A stretch of DNA of 64,000 nt. Origin: a virus (Duplodnaviria; Heunggongvirae; Uroviricota; Caudoviricetes). The stretch lies in IMG/VR virus record IMGVR_UViG_3300021963_000032. One strand, 5' to 3'. The translations under genes and the position numbers were made by a program. This document shows, in pieces, positions 36,156-52,576 of this stretch; the stretch's first letter is position 1, and each line of letters opens with the position of its first letter. The notes below the pieces were generated by a model. The model saw only the letters and a program-made list of their open reading frames with translations, was not told the DNA's origin and ran no database searches.

Positions 36156-36679
36156 TAAATAGTAGTAAATTTCATAACTGTAAAACATCATTTCCAGCAA
36201 TAGAGGGTTTAGGATTAACCGAAACCTTAGGAAAGGTTCGTATCAAGAATATATACCAAACCTGGAATGGAGAGAGTATGAATGATATTCGTGATCGTCA
36301 CGAGAACAATCCATATACACTACGAATAGGAATGCCAGCTGAAGATCAGCGATTAAAAAATGATTCAATATACTTTATATTAGATTACCTATCATACAAT
36401 CCAGTAACAAAGGATGTAGAACAGCGTCAGCTGACACCATTAAGAAATATGGAAAAGCTATACATTGGTCAATCTTTGCAAGAAAAGGAGTATAGTGATT
36501 ATAGATTATTTGTAGATGGAAACGCGGTCGTCGACGATATTTATTTGAAGAAGTACGAAAGTCTGAACAATCAGCCAATTGGTAGATTACTTGTAAATTT
36601 AATGGATACTGTAGAGAAATTAAAGCTAGAAGTCGTCGATCTTAAACGTCAACTTAAAACACAACATATTTATAAGTAA
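36152..36679 (+). CDS. Hypothetical protein with a fibre-chaperone-like C-terminal coiled coil
   Basis: YRLFVDGNAVVDDI...LLVNLMDTVEKLKLEVVDLKRQL. Confidence 0.45.
   Translation: MINSSKFHNCKTSFPAIEGLGLTETLGKVRIKNIYQTWNGESMNDIRDRHENNPYTLRIGMPAEDQRLKNDSIYFILDYLSYNPVTKDVEQRQLTPLRNMEKLYIGQSLQEKEYSDYRLFVDGNAVVDDIYLKKYESLNNQPIGRLLVNLMDTVEKLKLEVVDLKRQLKTQHIYK
36667..36674 (+). promoter_or_regulatory. Putative late promoter TATTTATA, embedded in the 3' end of the upstream CDS
   Basis: 4 nt before ATG 36679. Confidence 0.6.
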
Positions 36680-39003
36680 TGAACAAACTATCTGATTATC
36701 TAGTAGAACAACTCTTGCAAGAGTTAAACCAAGGTGTGACTGTTATGCTTCCTGGTGGATTCAAACCACCACACGCAGGTCACCTGCAGTTGGCAAAGAA
36801 GTATGCATCACTTTCGGAAGTATCGGAAGTAAAAGTACTTATCGGACCTAAAGAGCGTGACGGCATTACAATGAAGCAGTCAATGGAGGTTTGGCAATTG
36901 CTTTTAGGTGGAGTAAGTGGTATCAAAGTTGAGCAAGCGCCAAACGATAATCCAATGCGAGCAGCTTATGAGTTTATCGAAAAAGCAGCACCTGGAACTT
37001 ATGCTTTAGGTTCAAGTTCGAAAGGAAAGGATTACGAAAGAGTTAAGATGTTTGTTGCAGGGCATGCAGATGCAACTGGAACAACTCCAGCAGGTAAGTA
37101 CAACAGACCAAACGTAAGTGTAGTTGAGTTACCAGTTAATGCAGCACCAATGTTATACAAAGGACGTACGGATGATCAAAACGGTCAAGGCATTAGTGCA
37201 AGTACGTTACGTCAAGATTTAGCAGCAGGAGACTTTGTTAACTTCAAAACAAACTACCCAGGAGTTTCAGAACAAGTAGTTCGAGCAATATATACAATCC
37301 TTACGGGATCGCAGCAACTTTCAGAAGCTGTAATAAATGACTACGTTCAAAAGTTAAGAGTAAGATTCAAAGCTTTTTTACTTTCAATTAAGAAAGAAGG
37401 TCAAGAAACAAAAAAAGCATTTTCTTTGCTGATGCAGGCTGCTGCTGGTAAAAAAACCCTAACTAAAGAAGAAAAAGAACAGATTGGTAACCAAATGAAG
37501 GATGCGCTAAAGGCAGCCGGATTGTTGGCAGCTTCGGTGCTTCCAGGAGGAACCATCTACTTTATAATCATTCGACTTTTGAAATTAGAGAAGTGGACAA
37601 TGCCAAGTTCATTCCTAAGCAAGAATGCTGTATCAGCAGGAGTTGGTGCTACACTTCTTGAGTATGAATGGAAACCAATCTCAAAAAAAACCACAATAAA
37701 CGAAAACGCAGCTAGGTTGAGAAAAGCCATGAAGTTGACAGAAAGTCGACAAATGCTTAAAGAGGGAGGAGCAGCTGGTCACATGAGTCATCCATTTGAT
37801 GATTTGGATTTAACATTTGACGATGCTTCTAACATGATTGATGCAGCTTTGAGTGGTCAAGTTGAATTTGCTCAAGAGAAGTTAGATGGACAAAACCTAA
37901 TGGTAACTTACAAAGACGGTAAGGTACGAGCAGCAAGAAACAAAGGACAATTAAAAGACTTCGCAGCCAACTCAATCACAGCTGACCAACTAGATCAGAT
38001 GATGGCTGGAAAGGGTGCAGTACAAACTGCATTTGTTGAAGCAATGAGAGATATGGAATCAGCTATCAATAAGCTAGATCCAAAACAAAAAGAAGAGTTT
38101 TTCCAAAACGGAAAGAAGTTTGTAAACTTTGAAGTCCTTTATCCAGGAACAACAAACGTAGTACCTTATGGAGCTACTCAGTTAAGACTTCATGGATTTA
38201 AGGAATACGATAAAGACGGTAATGTAGTAGATGAGGATTCAGATTCAGCTATCATGCTACAAAAAGCTATCGACAACGTTCAAGCTTCTAGTCAAAAAAC
38301 ATATGAGATTAGAGTAACAGATCCAATCACTCTACATAAGACAGCAGATTACGAAAAGCAAAAAGCTGAGTTGCTAAAGCAGCTTGAGAACATTCGTAAG
38401 ACCTACAACCTAGGAGAACAAGAAAAGATGTCTATGTACTTCCAAGCTTGGTGGAAAGCTTACATTGAGCAGAGAGCAAAAGAATTAGGATATAAAGTTC
38501 CAGACAACACGTTACAATTGTTGATCAGTCGTTGGGGATTTGCAGATAAGAGTACCAATGTTAAGGTTTTGAAAGCAGGAATTGATAATCAGGATTTCTT
38601 AAACTGGGTTGATCAATTTGACAAAAACGGAGTAGCTGCACAACAAAAAGAAGCAAAAAGACCATTAGAAAATTTATTCCTTAAATTGGGTGTTTATGTT
38701 CTACAAAACGTACAACAATTAGTAGCGCTTAATCCAAACGACAGTATGCAAAAGATGCGAGATGAGTTAGCAGTTTCCATCCGCACAATTAGAGCAGCTG
38801 CCGCATCACCTGAGATGCAAGATGACGATAAGTCATTACAATTCCTAAAAAGAGAATTACAAAGAGTAAAGGATTTAGGAGGTTTCCAAGCGATTGTACC
38901 AACAGAAGGTATTGTGTTTAAGTATAACGGAAAGCTTTACAAATTAACTGGAGCATTTGCTCCAATCAACCAGATTATTGGATATTTAAAATTTCAACGA
39001 TGA
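36679..39003 (+). CDS. Multidomain protein: HIGH-type nucleotidyltransferase, LETM1-like helical domain and KxDG ligase-like domain
   Basis: PGGFKPPHAGH with later GISASTLR; ASVLPGG...MPSSF; GGAAGHMSHPFD...QEKLDGQN...VNFEV...EGIVF...KLTG. Confidence 0.7.
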   Translation: MNKLSDYLVEQLLQELNQGVTVMLPGGFKPPHAGHLQLAKKYASLSEVSEVKVLIGPKERDGITMKQSMEVWQLLLGGVSGIKVEQAPNDNPMRAAYEFIEKAAPGTYALGSSSKGKDYERVKMFVAGHADATGTTPAGKYNRPNVSVVELPVNAAPMLYKGRTDDQNGQGISASTLRQDLAAGDFVNFKTNYPGVSEQVVRAIYTILTGSQQLSEAVINDYVQKLRVRFKAFLLSIKKEGQETKKAFSLLMQAAAGKKTLTKEEKEQIGNQMKDALKAAGLLAASVLPGGTIYFIIIRLLKLEKWTMPSSFLSKNAVSAGVGATLLEYEWKPISKKTTINENAARLRKAMKLTESRQMLKEGGAAGHMSHPFDDLDLTFDDASNMIDAALSGQVEFAQEKLDGQNLMVTYKDGKVRAARNKGQLKDFAANSITADQLDQMMAGKGAVQTAFVEAMRDMESAINKLDPKQKEEFFQNGKKFVNFEVLYPGTTNVVPYGATQLRLHGFKEYDKDGNVVDEDSDSAIMLQKAIDNVQASSQKTYEIRVTDPITLHKTADYEKQKAELLKQLENIRKTYNLGEQEKMSMYFQAWWKAYIEQRAKELGYKVPDNTLQLLISRWGFADKSTNVKVLKAGIDNQDFLNWVDQFDKNGVAAQQKEAKRPLENLFLKLGVYVLQNVQQLVALNPNDSMQKMRDELAVSIRTIRAAAASPEMQDDDKSLQFLKRELQRVKDLGGFQAIVPTEGIVFKYNGKLYKLTGAFAPINQIIGYLKFQR

Positions 39004-39329
39004 AAGACTTATATAAGCAAATACAAGAGGCAGCAGTAAAGCAAGTATTGCAAGAAAAGAAAGAAGCTATTGCAACTTCGCCTAACACAAACATGACATT
39101 ACACTACAACGCTGACTTCAACGAGGTTGGTGAAAGTGGTTCACCAGAGGTTAGCTTTACAATAAGTGTATCATCTACTGGAGGAAAAGAATTCTACAGA
39201 GCCGTTTCTGATAAAGAGGAGGGGTCAAAATTAGAAGAAGCAGCAAAACTCGAACTACGACGAGCTATGCGAAAGTTTGACAAATACGTAGAGTTAATTT
39301 TAGAAAAATATAAGTTACAAGCAAGATGA
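39000..39329 (+). CDS. Hypothetical protein with a possible capsid-targeting N-terminus
   Basis: MKDLYKQIQE|AAVKQVLQE. Confidence 0.6.
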   Translation: MKDLYKQIQEAAVKQVLQEKKEAIATSPNTNMTLHYNADFNEVGESGSPEVSFTISVSSTGGKEFYRAVSDKEEGSKLEEAAKLELRRAMRKFDKYVELILEKYKLQAR

Positions 39330-39829
39330 GTAAATTATTTGTTACGACAGGAAACAAACGTACTAACTACAAAGAAGGTGATGTTTGGACAGAGAATGGA
39401 AAAGAGTGGACTATTAGAAATGGTCTAAAGCGAACAGTCTCGAAAATGGATGCAGCTAGAAAGCAGGTTTTTACACCACTAGCTTGCCCAGTGTGTAAAG
39501 GTTCAATGAAACATCATTTAGACGCAAAGATGTGGAACTTTAACCAAAGATGTTACTCGTGTACTATCGATATGGAGCATGAGATCCTGAAAGCAGGAAA
39601 ATGGGAAGAATACCAGAGAGGGAGAATTACAGCAAACGCAAATGCATTTTGCGAAGACATGGAAACAACTCTAAACGAGTTCATTCAAGACTCTGTAACA
39701 AAGACAAACGTTACTGAGGATGGATTGATTGAGAACTGGAAAGACGCAGATCAAGGTTTTTTAAAGTCAGTTGTAGATAAGGAGGTTAGTGAGTTAAAGG
39801 ATAAGATTGAAAAATATAAGAACGAATGA
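39326..39829 (+). CDS. Hypothetical Zn-finger protein
   Basis: CPVC...CYSC. Confidence 0.6.
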   Translation: MSKLFVTTGNKRTNYKEGDVWTENGKEWTIRNGLKRTVSKMDAARKQVFTPLACPVCKGSMKHHLDAKMWNFNQRCYSCTIDMEHEILKAGKWEEYQRGRITANANAFCEDMETTLNEFIQDSVTKTNVTEDGLIENWKDADQGFLKSVVDKEVSELKDKIEKYKNE

Positions 39830-40431
39830 GTGCATCAATAATTACAGCTTTTATAACGGGAGTACTAGGTCCAATACTTTTGTTAGTGTTAAAACATTAC
39901 TACGAGAAAGGAAAAGCAAAGCCAGACATGGTAGCTGAAGCTTTGGAGACTAGCGAAAGAGTTATGACAAAGTTGGAACATATTAGAGATGAGTTTAATG
40001 CGGATCGAGTTTGGATTACACAGTTTCACAATGGTGGACATTTCTACCCAACTGGCAAGTCAATTGCTAAGTTTAGCATGGTATACGAGTCTATTGGGTT
40101 AGGAGCTGTATCAATACAATCAAACTTCCACAACATTCCAGTAAGTTTATTCAGTAAGTCAACTAATCATCTATTAGAAAACGATGTTATAGAGATTGCT
40201 GATTATAAAGATGAAACAATAGCAACACACGGATTAAAGTATATTGCAGAAGAGGGTGGTTGCAAGTCAGGATATCTTTTTGCAATCAAAACTATTGACG
40301 ATAAGTTTATTGGTACAATGGGAGTGGATTATACAAGAAGAAAAACTAGATTGGACATAGAATCAATAAACCACCTAATGGTACATGCAACAGCTATTGG
40401 TGGAGTATTGCATAACCATTTGCAGAAGTAA
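39826..40431 (+). CDS. Single-TM GAF-like domain protein (T4 holin T-like architecture)
   Basis: TM segment IITAFITGVLGPILLLVL; GAF-like ADRVWITQFHNG...GYLFAIKTIDDKFIGTMGVDY. Confidence 0.5.
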   Translation: MSASIITAFITGVLGPILLLVLKHYYEKGKAKPDMVAEALETSERVMTKLEHIRDEFNADRVWITQFHNGGHFYPTGKSIAKFSMVYESIGLGAVSIQSNFHNIPVSLFSKSTNHLLENDVIEIADYKDETIATHGLKYIAEEGGCKSGYLFAIKTIDDKFIGTMGVDYTRRKTRLDIESINHLMVHATAIGGVLHNHLQK

Positions 40432-41012
40432 TGCCATATACAGCGAGAAAAGTAGGAGATCAATACTGCGTCTATAAGAAAGACGGAGGTGGTAAGGTTG
40501 GATGTACTGACGGAAACAAAGAAGCTTTACATAAGTACCTTGCTGCTCTACACTTAAACGCTAACGAAGCTATAAACGAAGAGTCAGAAGGTTTATGGGC
40601 AAATATTAGAGCAAAGAGAGCTCGAGGAGAGGAACCAGCACGTAAAGGTTCTGAAGCTTACAAAAGTGCAGTTGCAGCTGCAAAAAAGATTAATGCACAA
40701 GAGATTACTATATGTGATGGCTGTGCGTTAGCTTTATTGGAGGCTATTCAAGCAACAAAACAAGAATTAACAGAAGGAGAATACCAAGGCCGTACAGTTA
40801 AGCTAGGCAAACCTATGAGGGGTGATGTTAAGAAGTTTAAGGTGTATGTTAAGAATCCAAAAGGAAACGTAGTTAAGGTTAACTTTGGACAAAAGGGAAT
40901 GAGTATAAAAAAGAGTGACCCCGCAAGAAGAAGGTCATTTAGAGCTAGACATAACTGTGATAGTCCAGGACCAAGAGACAAAGCTCGATACTGGTCTTGT
41001 AGAAATTGGTAA
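40431..41012 (+). CDS. Modular small basic protein (three or four short modules separated by xNE/LTE sites)
   Basis: Modules MPYTARK...LAALH, GLWANIRAKRARG and YQGRTVKL...RARHNC...YWSC. Confidence 0.6.
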   Translation: MPYTARKVGDQYCVYKKDGGGKVGCTDGNKEALHKYLAALHLNANEAINEESEGLWANIRAKRARGEEPARKGSEAYKSAVAAAKKINAQEITICDGCALALLEAIQATKQELTEGEYQGRTVKLGKPMRGDVKKFKVYVKNPKGNVVKVNFGQKGMSIKKSDPARRRSFRARHNCDSPGPRDKARYWSCRNW

Positions 41013-41014
41013 GT

Positions 41015-42067
41015 ATGAAGTTAAAGAAAATTTTAAGCGAAATAGAAGTTCTTGGTCAGGAGAAGGTAATACCTCTTGATGCACTTTCTGTGGATGCGGC
41101 TAGAGACACTATCCGTAACGGAAGAAAGGATAAAAACCAAGTAGACGATGTTGCAATGTCTAAAAAAGCAGCAATAGCTGTTAAGGATTTGAAACCTGCT
41201 CAAACAGAGATAATCAAAGAAAAGGCATTTGGAATGGCTATTGCAATGTTGACTAAGGGTAAGTGGGACAACCAGGACCTAGAAGCAATTATATCAAAAG
41301 ACAATTTTATCATGGACGGTCATCATCGATGGGCAGCTGTGTCATTAATTGATCCAAGTGCAAAGATCGTAGGAACTGTCATTAACTTACCAGGAGTAGC
41401 ACTTGTGTCGGTACTCAACGTTGCAACAAAAGCAATGGGTAAGAGTGGTAATCCTGGTAAAGGAGATGTAGCTTCGTTTACTGGAGCTAACTTTGAACCA
41501 CTGATAACAGACGCAATGCAAAACGGTCTCAAAGGAGACTTCCCAATTGACGCTAAAACAATTACACGAGCTATAGCAAAGATGCCAGGAGCTAATGGTG
41601 ATGCTGAAAAGGGAAAGCAAATAATGGTAGCTAATGCAGATACGCTACCAAAACAGATTATGCCAGGAGCACCAGAAAGAGTCAACATGCCAGTGATATC
41701 TCCTGACGAAGTTCAAAAAGTAGCAAGAGCAATAAGCCAAGGTATTATTGACTTCACAAAACCATACGCACCAGGAACAAAACTACAACAAGATAAAAAT
41801 ATGAACGAACTTAGATTAACATCAGCAGGTGTGAAGGACATCTTAAAGGCAATTTTCAACAGAATTGACTTGCTTCCAAAACTAGGATTTCGTAAATTCA
41901 AAGATGTAATTGAATATCTTAAAGATGCAGATCTTGAGGAACAAGATGCACTAGAAGCTGAACTAAAGCGCCTAGGCGTAAACGTTGTTTACGAATCAAA
42001 AGAATCTCAACTAAGAAAGCTTGTACGAGAAGAAGTACGTCGTGCAATCAAAAGCAAAAAGAAGTGA
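41015..42067 (+). CDS. ParB/Srx-like domain protein
   Basis: LKPAQTE...ISKDNFIMDGHHRWAA. Start reassigned to ATG 41015 (MKLKKILSE). Confidence 0.75.
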   Translation: MKLKKILSEIEVLGQEKVIPLDALSVDAARDTIRNGRKDKNQVDDVAMSKKAAIAVKDLKPAQTEIIKEKAFGMAIAMLTKGKWDNQDLEAIISKDNFIMDGHHRWAAVSLIDPSAKIVGTVINLPGVALVSVLNVATKAMGKSGNPGKGDVASFTGANFEPLITDAMQNGLKGDFPIDAKTITRAIAKMPGANGDAEKGKQIMVANADTLPKQIMPGAPERVNMPVISPDEVQKVARAISQGIIDFTKPYAPGTKLQQDKNMNELRLTSAGVKDILKAIFNRIDLLPKLGFRKFKDVIEYLKDADLEEQDALEAELKRLGVNVVYESKESQLRKLVREEVRRAIKSKKK

Positions 42068-42759
42068 AACTAAAAAAGGCTTTAACGGAGGTACTCCTTA
42101 AACGTTTTTGTGAGGAGCTCGAGGTCGCAGTGCAACCAAAAGCAGCGACTGGTAAACTAGCGAGCCTATTGCAAGAATCTCAAAAGCTGATTTTTGAGCC
42201 TTTTGGATTGGAGCAAAATAAACAAGAATACTTTATAGCAGGATCTGCTAGATTATACTTATACCCAGAATTACAAGAATTACTTAAACTAAAACCAATT
42301 GGTGACTTGGATATTATAATTCCAAACAAACAGCATTGGCAAACTTTAAACACGTTTTTGCAAAGTAATCCTAACCCAAGAGTTAAACAAGCAGACGTAA
42401 ACGCTGGTCGATATATACCACACGATTTCATCGAAGCATTTGATCAATGGCTACCTAAGTATGATGAGGAGTCTGCAAAAGACTTCTCTGTTAGATCGAC
42501 AGCTGAGATTCTCAAAAACTCAAAGCTAATAGATGGGTACTACTACATGAGCTTATACGATATCATGGATTACAAACTCAACCTCAACAGAGATAAAGAG
42601 AAACAACTAACAACACTATTGATCAACTACCAGCGTGCAAAGACTGAATCTGAAAAACAAGAGATAAAGAACTTTGTACTGACGCTTTTTTCTGGAGATG
42701 AGAGTGAGGCTAGTGACTTTCTTGCACCAGCATTAACGCAGTTGGCTAAGAAAAATTAG
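42064..42759 (+). CDS. Pol-beta superfamily nucleotidyltransferase
   Basis: YFIAGS...IGDLDIII (G-S ... D-x-D); N-terminus MKLKKALTE. Confidence 0.7.
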   Translation: MKLKKALTEVLLKRFCEELEVAVQPKAATGKLASLLQESQKLIFEPFGLEQNKQEYFIAGSARLYLYPELQELLKLKPIGDLDIIIPNKQHWQTLNTFLQSNPNPRVKQADVNAGRYIPHDFIEAFDQWLPKYDEESAKDFSVRSTAEILKNSKLIDGYYYMSLYDIMDYKLNLNRDKEKQLTTLLINYQRAKTESEKQEIKNFVLTLFSGDESEASDFLAPALTQLAKKN

Positions 42760-42789
42760 TATTAATCAAAAAGCATAACATGGACGATA

Positions 42790-43008
42790 GTGAGCAGAGC
42801 GAAAAAGACACAGAAGGAGATCCTAGCAACGCGGGCACTAATGGTCGCACTCTTCTTCAATCCATTCGGATTCGATATAATTCAATACTGGCTGATATTG
42901 CTGACCGGGAGTTTGTGGAGAGCGAACTTCGTTATGTACTGTATAGCGGGATTGTTCTTTGGCTTATCCATCTTACTACGGTGGCAATCTAAAAAAGATA
43001 ACCAGTAA
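42790..43008 (+). CDS. Small two-TM membrane protein (holin/antiholin candidate)
   Basis: Two hydrophobic segments with basic termini; GTG start. Confidence 0.45.
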   Translation: MSRAKKTQKEILATRALMVALFFNPFGFDIIQYWLILLTGSLWRANFVMYCIAGLFFGLSILLRWQSKKDNQ

Positions 43009-43022
43009 GTTAAAACACATAC

Positions 43023-43030
43023 TATTTATA
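43023..43030 (+). promoter_or_regulatory. Putative late promoter TATTTATA
   Basis: 13 nt before ATG 43044. Confidence 0.65.
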
Positions 43031-43043
43031 TATAAAGCAAGGC

Positions 43044-43445
43044 ATGAAATTAATAAACCTTATACCACTAAGAGAAACAGAAGAATCAACACCAGAGTTG
43101 ATTGCAACTCCCTACTTCCGTGAGTTTCAAACGAAACATGGATACAAACCTTTGTTTAAGTATGTAGGAGTAAAAAACCAAGAGCATATCTTCTTGGCTG
43201 ATTTGGAAGACTTAGGTGCTATGGATCTTATAGTAGCAAAAGCACAGATCATGGCGAAGGTGACTGAAAAAGAGGCAGCGTTTGGTATAATCTGTACACT
43301 TACGGGTTTGAATCAATTTGACGCATCCATTTGTGTAATGAAACAAAAAGACAATGTAATCGAGGTTATACCTTATGATTCCAAAGATAAAAAGAATTTT
43401 GATGCTAAAGCGCTTAAGTTTGCATCTATAATAGAACAAGACTAG
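43044..43445 (+). CDS. Hypothetical protein with a possible capsid-targeting N-terminus
   Basis: MKLINLIPLRE|TEE. Confidence 0.6.
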   Translation: MKLINLIPLRETEESTPELIATPYFREFQTKHGYKPLFKYVGVKNQEHIFLADLEDLGAMDLIVAKAQIMAKVTEKEAAFGIICTLTGLNQFDASICVMKQKDNVIEVIPYDSKDKKNFDAKALKFASIIEQD

Positions 43446-43446
43446 T

Positions 43447-43815
43447 ATGAACAAGGACCTAGAAAAATTATTATCGTATTTATTGCATTCGAGAAATCAA
43501 GTACACGTATTTCACTTACAAACAAAGTCGTTCTCTGAACACACAGCTTTAGGAGGATACTACGATAGTATTGGAGGTTTGTTTGATGGTATAGTAGAAT
43601 CTTACCAAGGTAAGTATGACATCGTCACTAACTATGAGAACTTTGGATTAGAATCTTATAAAAGCAACGAGTCAACTATAGCATACTTAAAGGCGTTAGC
43701 TAAAAAAGTAGAAGACACATTCAGTAAAGTAGAAGATACTTACATCCAAAACCAATTAGATGGTGTAACTGAGTTACTATACTCAACAATATATAAACTA
43801 AGATTCCTAAAATAA
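43447..43815 (+). CDS. Ferritin/Dps-like four-helix protein (DUF5856-like)
   Basis: QVHVFHLQTKSFSEHTALGGYYD...DGIVESYQG...ELLYSTIYKLRFL. Confidence 0.7.
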   Translation: MNKDLEKLLSYLLHSRNQVHVFHLQTKSFSEHTALGGYYDSIGGLFDGIVESYQGKYDIVTNYENFGLESYKSNESTIAYLKALAKKVEDTFSKVEDTYIQNQLDGVTELLYSTIYKLRFLK

Positions 43816-44228
43816 TGACAAAGAAACCGGTAAAGTTAACTAAAGAAAGAGCATTGCGTGAAGCAATCCGTCGCTTAGCATTAAAAGTGCTTCGTGAAGA
43901 GGAGGAAAAGACAGCAGAAGAAACTCCGGAAGAAGAAACTCCGGAAGCTGATCCAACAACAGCAACTACAGCACCAACAGCTGATCCTGCAGCCAAAGAA
44001 GAACCACAAGAAGAGCCAGCTCCTGAGGAAGCACCCGAGGAGGAAGGTCTAGGTGGAGACTTCCAAACAGCAGTAGATATGTTTGCTCGTAAGATTAGCC
44101 TATCTCAAGACACTCCAACAAACGACGACTTAGTAGATATGTTATCTCAAGTTGCAGAGAAGTTTACAACAACTAGCGAGGAGAGATTAAACTTATTAAA
44201 AGGAATCCGTAATAACATTGTACACTAA
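43815..44228 (+). CDS. Acidic hypothetical protein, possibly a prohead core component
   Basis: LREAIRRLALKVLREEE followed by a Pro/Glu-rich linker. Confidence 0.55.
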   Translation: MTKKPVKLTKERALREAIRRLALKVLREEEEKTAEETPEEETPEADPTTATTAPTADPAAKEEPQEEPAPEEAPEEEGLGGDFQTAVDMFARKISLSQDTPTNDDLVDMLSQVAEKFTTTSEERLNLLKGIRNNIVH

Positions 44229-44626
44229 TGAACACAGCGCGCATTGAAAGAAGACTTAAAGAAGACACTGCATACCAGGAGTTCTTCCAAAAAGCAATGA
44301 AAAAGTTTGACATTTCATCTCCAACCGATCTCAAAGATGTAGAGAAGAAAAAGAACTTCTTTAACTACGTTGATAAAAACTACTCAGCTAAAAGTGAAGG
44401 CAAACTAAGTGAAGCTTACTTTCCAGCTCATGGGAGTGATGGTCAGGACCTTAGGTTAGCTAAGCAGGGATTAGCTAATTGGTTTAAGAACAGCATCGAG
44501 ATGGGTATGCAAAACAAACCCCTAGGTCGTAAGACATTTGATATTCTAAATGACCTTATCGAAGAATACGCAGCAGCAAGTGCAGAAGAGTATAAAGAAG
44601 AGTGGTCCAAAGAAGTAGGATTGTAA
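44228..44626 (+). CDS. Putative prohead core/internal protein
   Basis: LKE|DTAYQEFFQKAMKKF...KKNFFNYVDKNY...LSE|. Confidence 0.5.
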   Translation: MNTARIERRLKEDTAYQEFFQKAMKKFDISSPTDLKDVEKKKNFFNYVDKNYSAKSEGKLSEAYFPAHGSDGQDLRLAKQGLANWFKNSIEMGMQNKPLGRKTFDILNDLIEEYAAASAEEYKEEWSKEVGL

Positions 44627-44627
44627 G

Positions 44628-44975
44628 ATGAAAATAGTAGTTACAAAAACCAACCTTATACTAGCTGCAGTAATTTTGTTACTGCTTGGTTACATATTGA
44701 TCACTAGAAAGCCGAATAGCGCTGCAAGTGATCTAAAATACAAAACTGAAATTGACAGCTTAAACCAGGCAATATCTAAATACCAGCAGCACCAAATTGT
44801 TTTGGATGAAAAAATCACTAACAAAGAGTTAGTTATTGAAAAACTAGATCACGAGATTGATTCAACAAAACAAGCAATTATTCAAGAAAGAAAATACTAT
44901 GGTGAAAAAATTAAAAATGCTGGCCGTTATACTCCTACTGAGCTTAACAGCTTTTTCTCAGAACGCTACAACTAA
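44628..44975 (+). CDS. Membrane-anchored coiled-coil protein (i-spanin-like)
   Basis: N-terminal TM LILAAVILLLLGYILI followed by a coiled coil; overlaps the next gene. Confidence 0.5.
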   Translation: MKIVVTKTNLILAAVILLLLGYILITRKPNSAASDLKYKTEIDSLNQAISKYQQHQIVLDEKITNKELVIEKLDHEIDSTKQAIIQERKYYGEKIKNAGRYTPTELNSFFSERYN

Positions 44976-45336
44976 AGAACCTTTAGTCTGCATACCACAA
45001 TCAACAGCACAAAAGATAGCAGTCGATCTTATAAGATTAGACTCAACTACCGTTGAACTTAAAAGTACACAAACCTTACTTCAGAAGACAGAACAAAAGG
45101 TTTTGGAGCAAGATAGTTTGATAGCAATTTATAAGGAAAAGGTTTCAACCTACGAAAAGGAAGTCGCTACCCAAAACGAAAGATTTAATACTTGCTCAAG
45201 TCGAGTGACTAAGTTGGAGGGTGATGTTGCTGATCTAGCTAAGAAGAACAAAAACCTCAAAAAATGGTTAACTGGAATCGGTGGAGGTTTTGTTGCTAGT
45301 GTGGGTATATTAATAACCATGTTTACGATAAAATAA
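44899..45336 (+). CDS. Signal-peptide, coiled-coil, C-terminal-TM protein (spanin-like partner)
   Basis: Start reassigned to ATG 44899: MVKKLKMLAVILLLSLTAFSQ; C-terminal GIGGGFVASVGILITMF. Confidence 0.5.
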   Translation: MVKKLKMLAVILLLSLTAFSQNATTKEPLVCIPQSTAQKIAVDLIRLDSTTVELKSTQTLLQKTEQKVLEQDSLIAIYKEKVSTYEKEVATQNERFNTCSSRVTKLEGDVADLAKKNKNLKKWLTGIGGGFVASVGILITMFTIK

Positions 45337-45337
45337 T

Positions 45338-46915
45338 ATGTCAGATCAACAGAAGACATTAAAAGACATTATAAAGGACGAGTACATAAAGTGTGCTCGT
45401 TCTGCGTCTTACTTCATGAAAAAGTACTGTGTGATTCAGCACCCTACTAGAGGTAAGATTCCATTTCATTTGTATCCGTATCAGGAAGATGCACTACAAG
45501 ATTTCCAGGAGAATGATAGAACAATTATTCTAAAATCAAGACAGCTAGGTATATCAACACTTATTGCTGGTTATGCACTTTGGATGATCTTATTCCAAAA
45601 TGATAAAAACGTACTAGTTGTTGCGATTGACCAAAACACATCCAAAAACCTTGTAACAAAGGTGCGAGTGATGTTTGACAACTTACCGAGTTGGATGAAG
45701 TTGAAAGCGGTAGAGAGTAACAAACTATCGATGAGACTTTCAAACGGGTCTCAAATTAAAGCCGTATCAAGCACTGGAACATCTGGACGTTCAGAAGCCT
45801 TATCTTTGGTAATTATTGATGAGGCAGCTTTCGTTGATGGAGCAGAAGAGTTATGGGCATCGCTACAACAAACACTATCAACGGGTGGGGAGGGTATTCT
45901 ACTTTCAACACCAAATGGTACTGGTAACTTCTTCCACAAGATGTGGGCAAAAGCAGAAGCAGGTGAGAATAAATTTAAGACATTAAGACTTCCATGGACA
46001 GTCCATCCAGAAAGAGATCAAGTTTGGAGAGATAGACAAGAAGCTGAGCTAGGAGCTCGATTAGCAGCTCAAGAGTGTGACTGTGACTTTAGTACATCTG
46101 GTAACACAGTTGTATCGCCAGAATTGATAACATACTACATGCAGACCTTTGCTCAAGAGCCAATTGAAAAAAGAGGGTTTGATGGAAACCTATGGATATG
46201 GGAACAACCGAACTATAACAGAAACTACTTGATAGCGGCCGACGTTGCACGTGGAGATGGAAGTGACTATTCAGCATTTCACGTTATAGATGTAGAAAGT
46301 GCTACACAAGTCGCTGAGTATAAGGGTCAACTTTCTACTAAGGATTTTGGTAACCTCTTAGTGGCTGTTGGTACAGAATACAATGACGCATTGCTAGTAG
46401 TAGAGAATGCGAACGTGGGATGGGCAACACTTCAGCAAATTATTGAACGTGGTTATAAAAACCTATACTACACACCTAAGGATAGTGGACTAGATTCAGA
46501 TAAGTTCCTATCTCGAGGATATGACCTAACAGACAAGACTGATATGGTAGCTGGGTTTACAAACTCACACAAAGTAAGACCACTTACGATCAGTAAGATG
46601 GAGTTGTATATACGAGAAAAAAGCTGTATAATAAGGAGTAAGCGATTGCTAGATGAGCTGTTTGTTTTTATCTATAGAAACGGAAGACCAGAAGCAGCAG
46701 GAGGTTATCATGATGATTTAGTAATGAGTTTTTGTCAAGGGTTGTGGGTAAGAGACACTGCATTGAGATTAAGACAAGCGGGTATAGATTTAAGCAGACA
46801 AGCCGTAAGTCACATAAAATCAACAGTATCAATCTACAAACCGAGTAATACTAAATCCGGTTGGAATATGAAAACACCGGATGGTAAAGATGAGGACCTT
46901 AACTGGTTAATGTGA
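45338..46915 (+). CDS. terL: Terminase large subunit, gp17-like
   Basis: LKSRQLGIST, LVIIDEAAF, STPNG, AADVARG, HDDLVMS. Confidence 0.95.
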   Translation: MSDQQKTLKDIIKDEYIKCARSASYFMKKYCVIQHPTRGKIPFHLYPYQEDALQDFQENDRTIILKSRQLGISTLIAGYALWMILFQNDKNVLVVAIDQNTSKNLVTKVRVMFDNLPSWMKLKAVESNKLSMRLSNGSQIKAVSSTGTSGRSEALSLVIIDEAAFVDGAEELWASLQQTLSTGGEGILLSTPNGTGNFFHKMWAKAEAGENKFKTLRLPWTVHPERDQVWRDRQEAELGARLAAQECDCDFSTSGNTVVSPELITYYMQTFAQEPIEKRGFDGNLWIWEQPNYNRNYLIAADVARGDGSDYSAFHVIDVESATQVAEYKGQLSTKDFGNLLVAVGTEYNDALLVVENANVGWATLQQIIERGYKNLYYTPKDSGLDSDKFLSRGYDLTDKTDMVAGFTNSHKVRPLTISKMELYIREKSCIIRSKRLLDELFVFIYRNGRPEAAGGYHDDLVMSFCQGLWVRDTALRLRQAGIDLSRQAVSHIKSTVSIYKPSNTKSGWNMKTPDGKDEDLNWLM

Positions 46916-46916
46916 C

Positions 46917-46924
46917 TATTTATA
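46917..46924 (+). promoter_or_regulatory. Putative late promoter TATTTATA
   Basis: 15 nt before the portal ATG 46940. Confidence 0.65.
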
Positions 46925-46939
46925 TAAAACTATACATTA

Positions 46940-48808
46940 ATGGCTGAAAACCAACAACCAGTATCACTTTTTGCCTCACTAAGACGTTTGTTCAGTACAG
47001 ACGTTATTATACGTAACGTAGGAGGTAATCAATTAAAAGTGATTGATACCAACAAGATTCAGTCTGACGGTAATATTAAAACCAACAGACGAGTTGATAG
47101 GTATTCGAGATTATTCTCAGTAATGCCAGGTGGAATGTCTATGCACGCAGGTCAATTGCAGCTATACACTCGATTAGAGTTATTCCGCGATTACGAAGCA
47201 ATGGACACGGATAGTATTATTTCATCAGCATTAGACATTTATGCAGATGAGTGTACTGCAAAAAACGAATTTGGAGATGTTCTATCAATCCAATCACCTA
47301 ACGAAAAGGTACAAAAAGTACTTCACAACCTATTTTACGACGTATTGAATATAGAGTTCAATTTGTGGCCGTGGATTAGAAACACCGTCAAGTATGGTGA
47401 CTTCTTTTTGAAACTAGACATCGCAGAAAAATATGGTGTAATCAATGTGGACCCAATCTCAGCTTACGAAATGATTCGTGAAGAGGGAATGGATCCAGAA
47501 AAGCCAAATGAGATTAAATTCAAAAGAGACTTTACAGCTCTTTCATCAGCTTATTCTGTTTCATCCAATAAAGATGCAGAAGAGTTTGATAACTACGAGG
47601 TAGCTCACTTTAGATTACTTACAGATACCAACTTCCTACCTTACGGACGTTCATTAATTGAACCTACTAGAAAGGTGTGGAAGCAGATCACTCTTATGGA
47701 AGATGCGATGTTAATTCACCGTATCATGAGAGCTCCAGATAAACGTGTATTCAAAATTGATATTGGTAACATTCCTGCAAACGAAGTTGAGGCATTCATG
47801 GAAGGTATGGTTAACAAGATGAAGAAAGTACCGTACATCGATGAACAAACTGGAGAATACAACTTAAAGTATAACATGCAAAACTTACTTGAAGATTTCT
47901 ATCTTCCAGTTCGTGGATCGGAGAGTGGGACTTCAATTGAATCACTACCAGGAGTTAACTATGATTCTATTCAAGATATTGACTATCTAAAAAATAGAAT
48001 GTTAGGATCTTTGAAAATTCCTAAAGCTTATTTAGGATACGAAGAAGATACGACTGGTAAAGCGACTCTAGCTTCTCAGGACTTCCGTTTTGCTAGAACA
48101 ATCGAACGTATACAAAAGATTATAGCTTCTGAGTTAACTAAGATTGCAGTTGTGCATTTATATGCACAAGGGTTTACTGACGATGAGTTAGTAGACTTCT
48201 CAATCAGCTTGACAGCACCGTCATCTGTATATGAAAAAGAAAAAGTAGAGTTGTGGACTAGTAAGGTAACACTTGCTGGTGATATGATAGAAAAGAAATT
48301 ATTTAGCCGTTACTGGGTGTACGAAAATCTATTCAACCTAAGTGAGGCAGAATTCTTGCATGAGCAAGATAGGATTATCGAAGATACAAAAGCACAATTT
48401 AGAATCGAGCAGATTAAGACTGAAGGAAACGATCCAATTAAAACTGGTCAATCATTCGGAACACCTCACGATTTGGCAACTCTTTATAAAGGTAATGGAG
48501 GTGTTCCAAAAGGGTATGACGCAGACAAGAAGGCACCTAAAGGTGGCTGGCCTGGAGCAGGACGTCCTGAGGAGCCTGGAAGTTATCGAACACACGAACA
48601 TCCACTTGGTTGGGATCCATTAGGAAACAAGACTATAATGAACGTGTCAGAGACGAAGTCAAACAAAAGACAGTCAATCGAAGCATACAGAAGTATGTTA
48701 AACTCGATTCCTTCTAAGAAAAGAGCACTGACTGAGACTTTTAACGATGAAAATGAGCAAGATAGCTCAAATTTATTAAACGAAGATAACATCTTACAAG
48801 AGGAATAA
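46940..48808 (+). CDS. Portal protein, gp20-like
   Basis: RDYEAMD, EDAMLIHRIMRAPDKRVFKIDIGN, EDFYLPVRG, SLKIPKAYL. Confidence 0.95.
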   Translation: MAENQQPVSLFASLRRLFSTDVIIRNVGGNQLKVIDTNKIQSDGNIKTNRRVDRYSRLFSVMPGGMSMHAGQLQLYTRLELFRDYEAMDTDSIISSALDIYADECTAKNEFGDVLSIQSPNEKVQKVLHNLFYDVLNIEFNLWPWIRNTVKYGDFFLKLDIAEKYGVINVDPISAYEMIREEGMDPEKPNEIKFKRDFTALSSAYSVSSNKDAEEFDNYEVAHFRLLTDTNFLPYGRSLIEPTRKVWKQITLMEDAMLIHRIMRAPDKRVFKIDIGNIPANEVEAFMEGMVNKMKKVPYIDEQTGEYNLKYNMQNLLEDFYLPVRGSESGTSIESLPGVNYDSIQDIDYLKNRMLGSLKIPKAYLGYEEDTTGKATLASQDFRFARTIERIQKIIASELTKIAVVHLYAQGFTDDELVDFSISLTAPSSVYEKEKVELWTSKVTLAGDMIEKKLFSRYWVYENLFNLSEAEFLHEQDRIIEDTKAQFRIEQIKTEGNDPIKTGQSFGTPHDLATLYKGNGGVPKGYDADKKAPKGGWPGAGRPEEPGSYRTHEHPLGWDPLGNKTIMNVSETKSNKRQSIEAYRSMLNSIPSKKRALTETFNDENEQDSSNLLNEDNILQEE

Positions 48809-48820
48809 ATCATAAGTGCA

Positions 48821-48828
48821 TATTTATA
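48821..48828 (+). promoter_or_regulatory. Putative late promoter TATTTATA
   Basis: 5 nt before ATG 48834. Confidence 0.65.
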
Positions 48829-48833
48829 TTTAG

Positions 48834-49688
48834 ATGAAAAAGTCAACACACTCCAAGATCAAGAACACTGCAATTCTATTTGAGTTGCTGACTAGGCAAG
48901 TTGCAGCAGACACGATCAAGGGTATCGATAAGTCACCAGCGTTAAAGCTGATTAGAGAGTATTTCAAATCAAACTCTGTAGTCGCTAGGGAATTGGTGTT
49001 ATACCAAACATTGGTGAATGAAAGATTCGCTAATCCAGAGAAAGCAGCGTACCTAGTTAACACTGTGGTAAAGCTGCGCAACAAGCTAGACGCAAAAACC
49101 TTAAAAGATACAAAGTACTCCTTAATTCGAGAGATTAAGAATCACTACGATTTAGGGGATTTCTTTAAAACAAACCTATCTGACTACAAACTCTACGCTT
49201 CTATTTATAGAGTGTTTGAAGGTGTAACTGTCTCAAGGGCAGCAGAGGTTGTTAATAGCCGATATACAATTATTGAGCATTTAACAAAAAAGAAATCAAA
49301 CCAACTCAACGAATCAGCTAACCCAGTAGGCGACTATCTTAAACAAGATGAGGAAGTAAGGTTATTAGCATACAAGTTGATGATTGATAAGTTTAACGAG
49401 AAGTACGCTAATCTATCAACTAGACAGAGAAGCATTCTTAAAGAGTATATCAACAATATCTCAAACACAGTGTCTTTGAAAGAATTTGCTACAAAAGAGG
49501 CAAAACTACTACAAACTCAATTGAAGAAGTTTCAACCTAAGGTAGCAGATAAGGTGACTAAAATCAAGTTAAACGAAGTAAGCAACATGCTTGACTCTTT
49601 TTCCAAAATGCGTAACATTAAGGAAGAACACATCTTGTCATTGTTACTTTATCATGAACTATTAAAAGAGCTGAAGAATGTCAATTAA
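48834..49688 (+). CDS. Head-morphogenesis-region helical protein
   Basis: KHSK-like start HSKIKNTAILFELLTRQ; between portal and protease. Confidence 0.6.
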   Translation: MKKSTHSKIKNTAILFELLTRQVAADTIKGIDKSPALKLIREYFKSNSVVARELVLYQTLVNERFANPEKAAYLVNTVVKLRNKLDAKTLKDTKYSLIREIKNHYDLGDFFKTNLSDYKLYASIYRVFEGVTVSRAAEVVNSRYTIIEHLTKKKSNQLNESANPVGDYLKQDEEVRLLAYKLMIDKFNEKYANLSTRQRSILKEYINNISNTVSLKEFATKEAKLLQTQLKKFQPKVADKVTKIKLNEVSNMLDSFSKMRNIKEEHILSLLLYHELLKELKNVN

Positions 49689-50421
49689 GAAAACACTGAC
49701 CGAAGAAGAAAAAAACGAAGTTCGTAGTTATATTAAAAAGCTACGAAAAGAGGGAAGTACCACAGCAGGTGTTCCTGGCTTCCTTACTGCAGCTGCTTGG
49801 TCTGGCGAAGAGGGTGGAGATGGTACTACAGCTATCGATGTTGAAGATGACCAATATGCATACTCAATCAAACCTAGTGAGAAAAAACCACACTTTGTTA
49901 AGCTAAACGAAGCAAACTATAAAAACTTTAAAGAGGATAGTTCATTAACTGAGGTTCAGAAAGTGAATAGAAAGGTACTTGAAGTGAACCGTATGTTGAG
50001 AGAGATATCTCAAGCGCTAGATCACAGCATGAAGCTGAAGCAAGAATCAGCGTTAGATAATTCTCGTTATTGGAAAAAGACAAACGAAGCTATTCTTAAA
50101 ATGAAAGCTAGAATTGCAGAAGTTAATAAGAAGGTGAGTCGATTGGCTAACCTAAAAGAACTAGCTGCAAACTCGGTAAAGGATAGATTAGTGCAGATTT
50201 TCAATAAAGCAGGAATCCAAATAACAGCTCAAGATGTGGATTACAACCAGATTGGAGCTGATTGGTATGAGTTTGATATCATGCTTAATGGGGAACCAAT
50301 TGCTATTGATTACAAAGCTGGTGAAATTATCTATCAAGATTACGATGAGGACATAAGACTTGGAAACCTTAACCAAGAACAACAGTTAGTGCAAAACATA
50401 TCCAAAGAAATAAAACCATGA
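49678..50421 (+). CDS. Putative prohead core/internal protein
   Basis: LTE, LRKE|GSTTAGVPGF and KLNE| sites; coiled coil. Confidence 0.55.
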   Translation: MSIKKTLTEEEKNEVRSYIKKLRKEGSTTAGVPGFLTAAAWSGEEGGDGTTAIDVEDDQYAYSIKPSEKKPHFVKLNEANYKNFKEDSSLTEVQKVNRKVLEVNRMLREISQALDHSMKLKQESALDNSRYWKKTNEAILKMKARIAEVNKKVSRLANLKELAANSVKDRLVQIFNKAGIQITAQDVDYNQIGADWYEFDIMLNGEPIAIDYKAGEIIYQDYDEDIRLGNLNQEQQLVQNISKEIKP

Positions 50422-51032
50422 AACAAGTACTAGTTGACTATATAGGATCAATAACCGTAACGCCAGAACAGATTACAGAGTCTATGGCAACCAACAACGG
50501 TAAGGTTATTGTTAGTGGTATCATGCAAAGAGGTAGTACTAGAGGTGATGAAAACTTTAACCAGAATGGAAGAAGTTATCCATTACCGATTTTAAAGCGT
50601 GAATGTGATAAGTACAAAAAAGTATTCATTGCAGAGCGTAGAGCATTGGGAGAGTTAGATCACCCAGAATCTTCTGTAGTGAATTTATCAAACGTATCCC
50701 ACAACGTATTAGACTTGTGGTGGAATGGCGCTGACTTGATGGGTAAGATAGAAATTCTAGGAACGCCATCAGGAAACATAGCAAAAGAACTTCTGAAGGC
50801 TGGAATCCGTTTAGGTATTTCATCTCGAGGTATGGGTTCAGTATCAAACCTAGGAGAAGGTAAGGTAGAAGTTCAAGATGATTTTGAAATCGTTTGTTGG
50901 GACTTAGTATCGAATCCATCTACACAAGGAGCCTTTATGTCACCATCACTTAATGAAGGTGTAAATAGAGGAACAGCAAACAAATATTCAAAAATCAATT
51001 CACTTATTGGTGATATAATTTCAGTAATGTAA
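50418..51032 (+). CDS. Prohead protease, gp21-like
   Basis: ALGELDHP, GISSRGMGS, WDLVSNPST. Confidence 0.95.
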   Translation: MKQVLVDYIGSITVTPEQITESMATNNGKVIVSGIMQRGSTRGDENFNQNGRSYPLPILKRECDKYKKVFIAERRALGELDHPESSVVNLSNVSHNVLDLWWNGADLMGKIEILGTPSGNIAKELLKAGIRLGISSRGMGSVSNLGEGKVEVQDDFEIVCWDLVSNPSTQGAFMSPSLNEGVNRGTANKYSKINSLIGDIISVM

Positions 51033-51033
51033 T

Positions 51034-51393
51034 ATGAAACTAAAACAAATTATAGAAAATCTTGACCAAAAGGTAGAGCGCAACGAAAAAGCTGCATTCT
51101 TACAAGAGGTATCCTTATTCAATGAATATGGAAAGATCATTTACCGTACTGATGGTATGCGTGAAGCAGCTGAAAAAATTAGTAAGATTGTTGAGAACGC
51201 TGAGCGTATTGCATTGCAGGAAACTGACGAATGGTTCGATGAAGTAACCGTTAAGCGTAATATGAAGTCTCTTCGCTCCAACAATGAGGCATTTAGAAAG
51301 ACTGTAGGTGAAGTTGCTAAATTGCAACAACGACTAGAAGCTCTTTACGAAGAAATGGGTAGTACTTTAGGTAGATACTACGAAATACACTAA
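51034..51393 (+). CDS. Hypothetical head-region protein
   Basis: MKLKQIIE N-terminus; helical. Confidence 0.6.
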   Translation: MKLKQIIENLDQKVERNEKAAFLQEVSLFNEYGKIIYRTDGMREAAEKISKIVENAERIALQETDEWFDEVTVKRNMKSLRSNNEAFRKTVGEVAKLQQRLEALYEEMGSTLGRYYEIH

Positions 51394-51395
51394 GC

Positions 51396-51803
51396 ATGAG
51401 CAAGCACCTTATAAACAAGCTGATCTCAGAAATTCTCAATGAATATGTCTTTGAGGCTGAAGAAAAGGCTCCGACTAATCCCTTTGCAGCACCAGGTGCA
51501 GATGCCGGCGGAGATGCAGCGGCTGCAGATGAAGCAGAACCAGCAGCAGACGGTGCTGACGCTAAAGACGAAAAAGACACAGAAAAGAAAGAAGGAGGAG
51601 GGGAGGATGCCTTATCTTTTAGCTTCGATATTGATGGAGTCAAGAGGTATAATAAAGCACACTTCATAAATTCTAAAGCTGTAGCTAAAAAGATTACTAA
51701 AGATGGAATTATTGCTACAGTAGAACCAGATGGGGTTAACATCCTAGTAGGTTTCGACGATATTACAGAAAGCGCTAAAAAATTCTTTAAAGTTAAAAAA
51801 TGA
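51396..51803 (+). CDS. Hypothetical head-region protein
   Basis: LISE/ILNE sites followed by an Ala/Asp/Glu linker. Confidence 0.6.
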   Translation: MSKHLINKLISEILNEYVFEAEEKAPTNPFAAPGADAGGDAAAADEAEPAADGADAKDEKDTEKKEGGGEDALSFSFDIDGVKRYNKAHFINSKAVAKKITKDGIIATVEPDGVNILVGFDDITESAKKFFKVKK

Positions 51804-52576
51804 AAAAAACACAAATCAGCATAACAGAGCTTACTCAGCAGATTCTTTTCAAAAAGAGAATCAAAATGATAATGGAAAACGCAGCAGGAATGGCATCTGG
51901 TATTCAGAGTCAGGTTGTTAATCTAGGAAAGGAGCTACAAGCTGCCGGAGAAGATGCAACAGACGAAGAAGTACAAGCTGCACTTCTAATGGCTGCCTTA
52001 AATGACCAAGGAAAATTAGACAATGTAGATGCTCAAGATGTTGATGCAGTTGCCGGTCAAATTAAAGAAGCTAGAGGCTACACTATCTCAGAGAGTGCAG
52101 GTGGATTGATCCATACCCTTGAGATGGTAGGAAACATACTAGGGAATACGGCATTGATGAATGTAATAGCAAAAGCAGTAGAAAAAGCCACTGGAAAGAA
52201 AGTAGATCCAAGTAAAATGGCAGCTGGGATTACTAAGATGGCAGGGTTCTTGAAAAAGTTAACCGGACTACCTGCAAAGGCAATGGAAAAGTTTTTCGGA
52301 TTCATTGCTGGAAAAATGGGTGGTGGAGATGTAGCTCAAAAGATAGCAGGATATGCAGGAACAATGATTGTTGTATTGGTGTTCTTTGCTTTGGGTACGA
52401 TGTTCTTCCCAGTATTAGGTGCATCACCTTTAATGATTGTATTATCCCTTACTGGATTAGTTGGAAAAGGATTTGAAATTGCAGCACTATGGAAGCACAT
52501 TAAAGAAGCAATCAAACAGTACAAAGACGAAAAAGGAAAAGGCTCAGAAGAGTTACCAGATCTAGCAGTAGCATAA
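51800..52576 (+). CDS. Head-region protein with a hydrophobic C-terminal hairpin
   Basis: IME|, IKE|, ISE| sites; MIVVLVFFALGTMFFPVLGASPLMIVLSLTGLVG. Confidence 0.6.
   Translation: MKKTQISITELTQQILFKKRIKMIMENAAGMASGIQSQVVNLGKELQAAGEDATDEEVQAALLMAALNDQGKLDNVDAQDVDAVAGQIKEARGYTISESAGGLIHTLEMVGNILGNTALMNVIAKAVEKATGKKVDPSKMAAGITKMAGFLKKLTGLPAKAMEKFFGFIAGKMGGGDVAQKIAGYAGTMIVVLVFFALGTMFFPVLGASPLMIVLSLTGLVGKGFEIAALWKHIKEAIKQYKDEKGKGSEELPDLAVA

Follow-up and report, generated by a model that had tools for sequence, protein, structure and literature searches.

Within the 64,000-nucleotide (nt) stretch of virus record IMGVR_UViG_3300021963_000032 analyzed here (the window), which comes from an uncultured, T4-like phage infecting Bacteroidota, many genes in and upstream of the head module encode proteins that begin with a short basic or hydrophobic leader ending in hydrophobic-x-Glu. 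The leaders are confirmed as a non-random feature that orthologues conserve; they can move between unrelated proteins and form separable modules. We hold with moderate confidence that they are capsid-targeting propeptides of the T4 type, removed by the S77 prohead protease encoded among them, and that the leader-bearing set consists in part of degradable core proteins and in part of proteins that are retained in the head and likely ejected with the DNA. An earlier note on this DNA had quoted ten such N-termini, all of which we found at their gene starts, and we add an eleventh (43815) that it had missed. The leader-bearing genes are as follows, with protein lengths in amino acids (aa).

36679..39003, plus strand: 774 aa, three-part protein; leader in residues 1-10/15 (MNKLSDYLVE/LLQE; LVE10, LQE15)
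39000..39329, plus strand: 109 aa; leader MKDLYKQIQE
41015..42067, plus strand: 350 aa; leader MKLKKILSE ahead of a conserved core in which DGHHR is invariant
42064..42759, plus strand: 231 aa; leader MKLKKALTE; candidate Pol-beta-type nucleotidyltransferase
43044..43445, plus strand: 133 aa; leader MKLINLIPLRE, kept in 5/5 family members found
43815..44228, plus strand: 137 aa; long basic leader (LRE16, LRE28), then an acidic low-complexity stretch; orthologues have L-x-E at residues 9-12
44228..44626, plus strand: 132 aa; leader MNTARIERRLKE; L-K/Q-E at residue 12 kept in orthologues
49678..50421, plus strand: 247 aa; leader MSIKKTLTE; six [LI]-x-E sites
51034..51393, plus strand: leader MKLKQIIE; 4.2 sites per 100 aa
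51396..51803, plus strand: leader MSKHLINKLISE
51800..52576, plus strand: leader MKKTQISITE; 53-residue hydrophobic stretch at 178-230

The gene at 41015 starts at an ATG within an open reading frame (ORF) that opens at TTG 41006, and the gene at 42064 starts at a GTG that overlaps the preceding stop. As the leader criterion we took [LI]-x-E ending at residues 8-12, from the published T4 rule (PMC9026906, PMC5694885). The enrichment check and the comparison with a Glu-rich background that had been suggested for these leaders both came out clearly: the motif is present in 10/22 genes of 36679-52576 versus 0/35 elsewhere in the window (Fisher 1.5e-5), and the motif density in the bodies of the same proteins predicts only 7.4% per protein (binomial 1.4e-6). 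The excess is restricted to about residues 3-18 and occurs only in the head region. The test in its originally proposed, looser form, (L/I/V/M)-x-E anywhere in the first 15 residues, gave 11/22 versus 6/35, so the signal is clearest in the T4-like range of residues 8-12. An independent replicate is the complete genome of Flavobacterium phage vB_FspM_immuto (hereafter immuto), which with Microcystis phage Mel-JY01 is the closest cultured phage by portal identity (52% and 50%, respectively): there, the motif stands at residues 7-14 in 15/30 genes of the 100.8-126 kb head region versus 22/194 elsewhere (p 3e-6). Leader-bearing genes of immuto include those at 111675, 113188, 114006, 117631, 118632 and 123355.

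Conservation was followed across 80 related loci, retrieved by a portal-based scan and sharing 52-93% portal identity. Orthologues of 36679, 41015, 43044, 44228, 51034, 51396 and 51800 keep the hydrophobic-x-Glu leader end at about the same position, even where the rest of the protein has diverged to 30-60% identity. When 860 complete ORFs of these loci were clustered on residues from 26 onward, the resulting families were bimodal, either about 0% or 50-100% leader-bearing. The portal, the 48834 and 39326 families and membrane proteins fall in the first group; the leader-rich families include 44228 (4/5), the large-protein family of 36679 (15/23) and the 49678 family (37/59). Terminase and portal carry no leader and therefore serve as internal negative controls for the motif, with one chance match, in that the terminase N-terminus reads IIKE in 15/59 relatives (IIKD here), inside the start of a conserved domain.

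The clearest view of the leaders as exchangeable modules comes from the 41015 family. Across 120 homologues, the core, which starts with (D/E)-x-x-(V/I)-L-G, is headed by leaders of at least eight unrelated types, 9-38 residues long, and 105 of the 111 homologues with a definable leader have [LIVFM]-x-E no more than three residues from where leader and core meet. Some of the types also occur on other proteins, both in the window (the 43815 type) and in immuto (M-x-NFDLKKFLVENKL; MKKQILSE...LAGIITE). In L089, a close and syntenic relative, the first 27 residues of a 43815 homologue lead into the DGHHR core, and the remainder of that homologue follows it. Orthologues of 39000 carry other leaders (MKLKKLIE, MKLKKLLE), and in locus L020 the 39000 domain forms the C-terminal part of a 36679 homologue, with solo versions carrying their own leader. 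In other phages, the 40431 protein is fused upstream of the DGHHR core (511-613 aa), with L-x-E at the junction.

Two further observations on the layout of these genes came from the same loci. In L089 (an ENA contig syntenic with window 36152-46000), a single unrelated 290-aa gene with an MKLKNIL start replaces 40431-42759; together with the core insertion described above, this makes the segment L089:4396-7121 a hypervariable cassette site for cargo, flanked by conserved neighbors. In more distant relatives (L029, L034, L058 and others), a protein of about 200 aa ends in the 51034 domain, and its N-terminus, of the form MP-x-SQQQQK-MGL-LAYKRG, stands in for the short leader.

The large protein at 36679 provides a structural view of a leader as an addition to a recognizable enzyme. 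Its AlphaFold2 (AF2) model, built from a 10-sequence alignment, has a predicted local distance difference test (pLDDT) of 66. The claim that it contains a HIGH-type nucleotidyltransferase held up: residues 18-214 adopt an NMNAT/NadD/PPAT fold, with a VIA-align Z of 12.8 to 3h05 (root-mean-square deviation 2.9, 151 aligned), a Foldseek E of 1.8e-4 to 1yum and a PHROG cytidyltransferase match (E 1.1e-6), and the H-x-G-H and I-S-x-x-x-x-R motifs are present as HAGH and ISASTLR. Because residue 1-2 of the solved NMNAT/PPAT enzymes aligns at model residue 18-20, residues 1-17 are an extension, and they are modeled at pLDDT <50. Downstream of the enzyme lie a helical region (residues 216-303) with a single hydrophobic stretch at 279-301, a disordered linker (304-368) that holds LLE328, INE342, LTE355 and LKE362, and a C-terminal domain from residue 369. 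The L-x-E immediately before the invariant GGAAGHM-HPF start of that last domain is kept in 8/10 orthologues. The earlier proposal that internal sites fall at domain boundaries fits 36679, where 7/9 sites lie in segments with pLDDT <50 that make up ~22% of the chain (binomial ~7e-4), and fails for 42064, where the sites at 38, 45 and 72 lie within confidently folded helices.

As the earlier note had placed them, the leader genes are encoded together with terminase, portal and protease, in a region that holds a T4-type head module of terminase, portal, S77 protease, gp22-like scaffold, gp23 and PhoH.

45338-46915, plus strand: terminase large subunit, no leader
46940-48808, plus strand: gp20-type portal, no leader
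48834..49688, plus strand: post-portal protein, 284 aa, ten [LI]-x-E sites
50418..51032, plus strand: Peptidase_S77 (T4 gp21 family) prohead protease, PF03420 E 1.6e-25, between portal and scaffold
52735..53763, plus strand: gp22-like scaffold with conserved helical ends, an acidic middle and 15 [LI]-x-E sites
53786..55396, plus strand: gp23 major capsid protein, in which V-K-E55 aligns with T4 gp23 LTE65 and gp24 LRE10
55484-56176, plus strand: PhoH, part of the head module

In an alignment with T4 gp21, H82 and S135/S136 of the protease are invariant, and we take these to be its catalytic residues. The protease itself has a conserved hydrophobic-x-Glu near both ends (ITE21, LNE180). The N-terminal self-cleavage site of T4 gp21 (LIE9) has no counterpart here, its aligned position reading L-V-D, and ITE21 is conserved in the clade instead. 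E55 of the capsid protein is invariant in five sequences, with V-S-E or I-S-E in relatives. Judging from these alignments, protease specificity is probably conserved with T4.

Density of candidate sites divides the set. T4 core proteins contain 3.3-5.9 sites per 100 aa (3.5-5.9 for gp22, gp67 and gp68), versus about 1.5-1.7 for portal and capsid proteins; the corresponding values here are 3.5 for 48834, 2.4 for 49678 and 4.4 for scaffold 52735, and 51034 falls in the same range. This T4-core-like density makes 48834, 49678, 51034 and 52735 more likely to be degraded prohead-core proteins than delivered cargo. By comparison, 41015 has 0.9 sites per 100 aa and 36679 has 1.2, and those of 42064 lie only in its first 72 residues. 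The earlier note had read its whole set as delivered cargo; for 49678 and 51034 that description is the less likely one, and 41015, 36679 and 42064 do resemble retained cargo. The post-portal protein 48834 is also the most widely conserved unknown of the phage group, present directly after the portal in 68/80 loci with a near-invariant N-terminus, MKKSTHSKIKNT-ILFELL, and matching no Pfam or PHROG family.

A repeated motif and the terminators bear on how the leader genes are expressed. A ATATTTATA motif occurs in eight copies in the window versus 1.6 expected, all on the plus strand and about 4-30 nt upstream of gene starts.

19785, 24415, 26330, 32648, 36666, 48820, 56247 and 59487, plus strand: copies of ATATTTATA
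52604..52627, plus strand: terminator-like hairpin that closes the 48834-52576 unit

The copy at 36666..36674 precedes 36679, and the copy at 48820-48828 precedes 48834. In immuto, ATATTTATA favors the plus strand 16:1 and stands mostly before structural genes, which makes it a candidate late promoter or start-site element of the phage group. No strong plus-strand terminator lies between 36679 and 48808; a clear one also follows the capsid gene. The placement of ATATTTATA and the lack of a terminator from 36679 to the portal indicate that the leader genes are probably co-transcribed with the head genes. One immuto copy, at 25037, precedes a leader-bearing gene at 25061, far from the head module.

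From these observations we infer targeting, cleavage, virion retention, injection and a role in the host, along the following lines. Leader-bearing proteins would be made late, with terminase, portal, protease and scaffold, and the basic/hydrophobic leader would draw them into the scaffolding core of the prohead. Once activated, the S77 (gp21-type) protease would cut after the Glu of hydrophobic-x-Glu and remove the leader; in the 774-aa protein at 36679, it would probably also separate the domains by cuts in the disordered linker. Site-dense proteins (48834, 49678, 51034 and scaffold 52735) would share the fate of T4 gp22/67/68 and be degraded. Those whose sites are limited to leader or linkers (36679, 39000, 41015, 42064, 43044, 43815, 44228, 51396 and the membrane protein 51800) would stay in the head and exit with the DNA. 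A complex prediction of the scaffold (52735-53763) with 41015 residues 1-110 returned a score of 0.00 with partner pLDDT <50, and speaks neither for nor against binding.

Several observations weigh against this mechanism. Literature searches found no proteomics of virions, no cleavage results and no genetic data for this lineage, immuto included. The leaders do not resemble the T4 capsid-targeting sequence (CTS) MKTYQEFIAE, with which they have only M-K, a hydrophobic P3 and Glu at P1 in common, although within T4 the leaders of IPI, Alt and gp24 depart from that sequence as well, so CTS similarity is not a strict requirement. At P1' there is a wide choice of residues (Q, A, I, V, T, D, E, N, L) instead of the small ones often found in T4. 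Weakest among the leaders is that of 49678, whose motif drifts, with close orthologues reading L-T-K-K-E or similar. Two orthologues of 36679 have no leader, and the immuto homologue of the large protein begins with a Pol-beta-like N-terminal domain and no short leader. At the 41015 junction, the Glu could belong to the acidic core start rather than to a cleavage site. Finally, the leader of 42064 forms the start of a confidently predicted helix (residues 2-22), an exception to the rule of separable leaders, and in the model it may not be freely accessible.

Among the alternatives, the one that fares best limits the protease substrates to the head-cluster genes (48834-52576), as scaffold or core proteins, and treats the upstream enzymes (36679-44626) as ordinary late cytoplasmic proteins. 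The genes between portal and scaffold do hold the position of T4 gp67/gp68 and have high site density, terminase and portal separate the upstream block from these core genes, and the upstream genes 39326, 39826, 40431 and 43447 lack a leader. We nevertheless consider it unlikely, as 51034 and 49678 share their leader type (MKLKK-x-L-x-E) with the upstream enzymes, the 41015 family swaps leaders while conserving the Glu junction, the leader of 36679 extends beyond a complete enzyme fold and no terminator separates the upstream block from terminase and portal.

Composition could, in principle, yield such N-termini: Lys- or A-rich starts aid translation in an AT-rich genome, and amphipathic helices are common, so that the motif would have no signal function. 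The GC content of the window (~38%), the predicted helicity of the leaders and the chance IIKE of the terminase family all accord with that account. It would not, however, be expected to produce leader swapping around a fixed Glu junction, a motif peak confined to residues 3-18 of head-region proteins or a motif absent from the 35 other window genes and present in about 9-11% of immuto genes elsewhere; we regard it as very improbable. The weakest alternative, which we consider the least probable of all and scarcely credible, is that the leaders are recognition tags for some other partner (a modifying enzyme, chaperone or export route) rather than for the prohead core, an idea that draws on the targeting step being only inferred here and that sits poorly with Pfam and PHROG scans of 36152-56176 that gave no candidate modifying enzyme, with the S77 protease being the only adjacently encoded enzyme of matching specificity and with a tag that ends in the S77 motif also found at the T4 maturation site of the capsid protein.

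The favored reading, of T4-type targeting propeptides, has its precedent in T4, where gp21 cleaves behind the Glu of L/I-X-E and a CTS of 10 residues is enough to get a protein packaged; the CTS is all that the internal proteins of T-even phages have in common (PMC9026906, PMC3012670, PMC5694885). T4 leaders are 10-20 residues long (PMC9026906, PMC5694885), the propeptides of IPI, IPII, IPIII, Alt and gp24 are removed by gp21 (PMC9026906, PMC3012670, PMC9958956) and the CTS has been proposed to let T4-like phages load varied proteins (PMC9026906, PMC3012670). In the T4 record the sites read IAE10 in IPII/IPIII, ITE19 in IPI, LRE10 in gp24, LIE9 in gp21 and IAE9 in gp22. The system described here matches T4 in its protease family, in the gene neighborhood of portal, core proteins, protease, scaffold and capsid protein, in leaders of ~8-19 residues that end in hydrophobic-x-Glu and are all that unrelated proteins share, in core proteins dense in cleavage sites and in having enzymes among the proposed cargo, as T4 has Alt. 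It differs in having 11 leader genes in one block, several leader types in one lineage, a P3 that can be Val (capsid V-K-E55) and a proposed cargo among which are NMNAT-like, Pol-beta-type and DGHHR-core proteins, one of them built of several domains with candidate cuts between them; unlike T4, it is known from sequence alone.

Two other systems bear comparison. In phiKZ, 201phi2-1 and SPN3US, many head proteins are processed after Glu, at a short motif, by a protease related to gp21; the propeptides, which contain multiple sites, are thought to target the prohead, and cargo includes virion RNA polymerase and ejection proteins with membrane domains (PMC5694885, PMC9026906). These giant phages resemble the present case, as read here, in their protease, in cleavage after Glu at a short motif and in having enzymes and membrane proteins among the cargo, whereas their motif is S/A/G-x-E and their propeptides often exceed 100 residues, in contrast to L/I/V-x-E and T4-sized leaders here. 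The second comparison is with polyvalent proteins: Iyer et al. 2017 predicted that Pol-beta nucleotidyltransferases and ParB-like domains are packaged in capsids, in polyvalent or solo form, and are encoded beside virion genes (PMC5512222). The domain repertoire as predicted here, the late-gene and virion context and the occurrence of domains fused or solo (here 39000, 40431, 41015 and the immuto large protein) are alike. Polyvalent proteins typically bring their own zincin-like peptidase, whereas Pfam and PHROGs detected no peptidase domain in 36679 or its neighbors; here the prohead protease would do the processing, and each solo protein bears a leader.

The remaining enzymatic assignments made in the earlier note are less secure than the NMNAT-like domain. 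Its ligase-like domain corresponds to the C-terminal domain of 36679, in which K401, D403, G404 and N406 are invariant in 10 orthologues (K-x-D-G); this motif is what remains of the claim, as the domain has no PDB sequence or profile match and fold searches were dominated by the N-terminal domain. Its second nucleotidyltransferase class is represented by 42064, which is probably of the Pol-beta type, on the strength of G60, S61, D81 and D83, invariant in 34 homologues, and of weak fold matches: the top Foldseek hits of the AF2 model (pLDDT 84.8) are all Pol-beta-type (TM1012, MenT1, ANT(2'')), with a best E of 0.012. The N-terminal region of ~45 residues in the 42064 family, with its 3-5 L-x-E, was considered as a long propeptide and rejected, since the model shows the nucleotidyltransferase fold opening with helix 30-47, at pLDDT >90; in the model, only the first 9-10 residues stay a candidate leader. 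The ParB-like domain proposed for 41015 retains the DGHHR motif, invariant in 21 homologues, and weak matches: its profile retrieves from PDB only a ParB/Srx-fold serine kinase and 1vk1 (E 0.17), and Atlas rows with ParB_N reach a TM of 0.25-0.28. For 51800, the candidate membrane-active protein, the hydrophobic stretch at 178-230 suffices for two membrane helices. In immuto, the counterpart of the large protein is gp183 (L005:7131-9854, annotated NadR), which begins with a G-S / D-L-D-I Pol-beta-like domain, so that two nucleotidyltransferase types encoded by separate genes in the window are fused there.

These pieces would allow a broader scheme, in which the head protease acts both as tag remover and as polyprotein cutter for injected enzymes that can be added or exchanged at will. 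We offer it tentatively; with domain exchange, the splitting of 36679 and a role for nicotinamide adenine dinucleotide (NAD) all included, it is rather unlikely to be right as a whole. Cargo domains would then swap between phages by recombination at the leader boundary and turn up alone, fused or behind another leader, an arrangement observed for 39000, 40431, 41015 and in L089. Inside the capsid, the 774-aa protein would come apart into three products (an NMNAT-like enzyme, a helical piece associated with the membrane and an enzyme with K-x-D-G), and the NAD-forming enzyme delivered with the DNA could pre-empt host defenses that deplete NAD. The principle is already established for T4. To this we add that the pattern recurs in a cultured phage, that one cargo family exchanges its leaders, that a leader extends a recognizable enzyme fold and that the linkers of a multi-domain protein hold candidate protease sites.

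Should the leaders function like those of T4, a ready-made set of enzymes and other proteins, open to rapid exchange, would enter the cell before any gene expression. Its carriers would be distant, T4-like phages that infect aquatic Bacteroidota and, it appears, cyanobacteria too, and the same pattern is found in cultured immuto, whose host is Flavobacterium sp. LMO8. The T4 concept of internal proteins, which covers Alt and three small inhibitors, would thereby widen to a modular kit of enzymes, and a short leader ending in a protease motif would offer a sequence rule for finding injected effectors in metagenomes. To call such a set a host-takeover or anti-defense kit is to argue by analogy with IPI and Alt of T4.

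The window as a whole contains 57 credible genes, on the plus strand throughout. A megablast of 40000-52600 against GenBank phages found no near or near-identical relative, and the occurrence of the 41015-encoded protein on a 170.6-kb contig points to an uncultured T4-like phage of roughly 170 kb. Pfam was silent for 36679, 41015, 42064 and most small genes of the region, and PDB sequence searches of the cargo candidates gave chance-level matches only (PARP1, E 0.03; eL15).

Several neighbors of the leader-bearing genes are also of interest. The 193-aa protein at 40431..41012 (plus strand) has no N-terminal leader and matches DUF5754 weakly. A leaderless protein at 43447-43815, assigned to DUF5856 and to the PHROG 'starvation-inducible regulator' (Dps/ferritin-like), lies among the leader-bearing genes and is kept in relatives. 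Small leaderless proteins with predicted membrane helices are scattered upstream of the terminase, at 39826-40431, 42780-42992, 44628-44975 and 44899-45336; the last of these (MVKKLKML...) lacks the leader motif and combines a signal-like N-terminus with a C-terminal anchor, and all four may be lysis- or superinfection-related. In the tail module, a 160-aa gene beside baseplate genes (10107-10589) starts with MKASDFVNLMRKVIREEVRSIVREE, which resembles immuto 81525 (MKLDLLKKLIKEAVKEAVREE) and the 43815-type leader.

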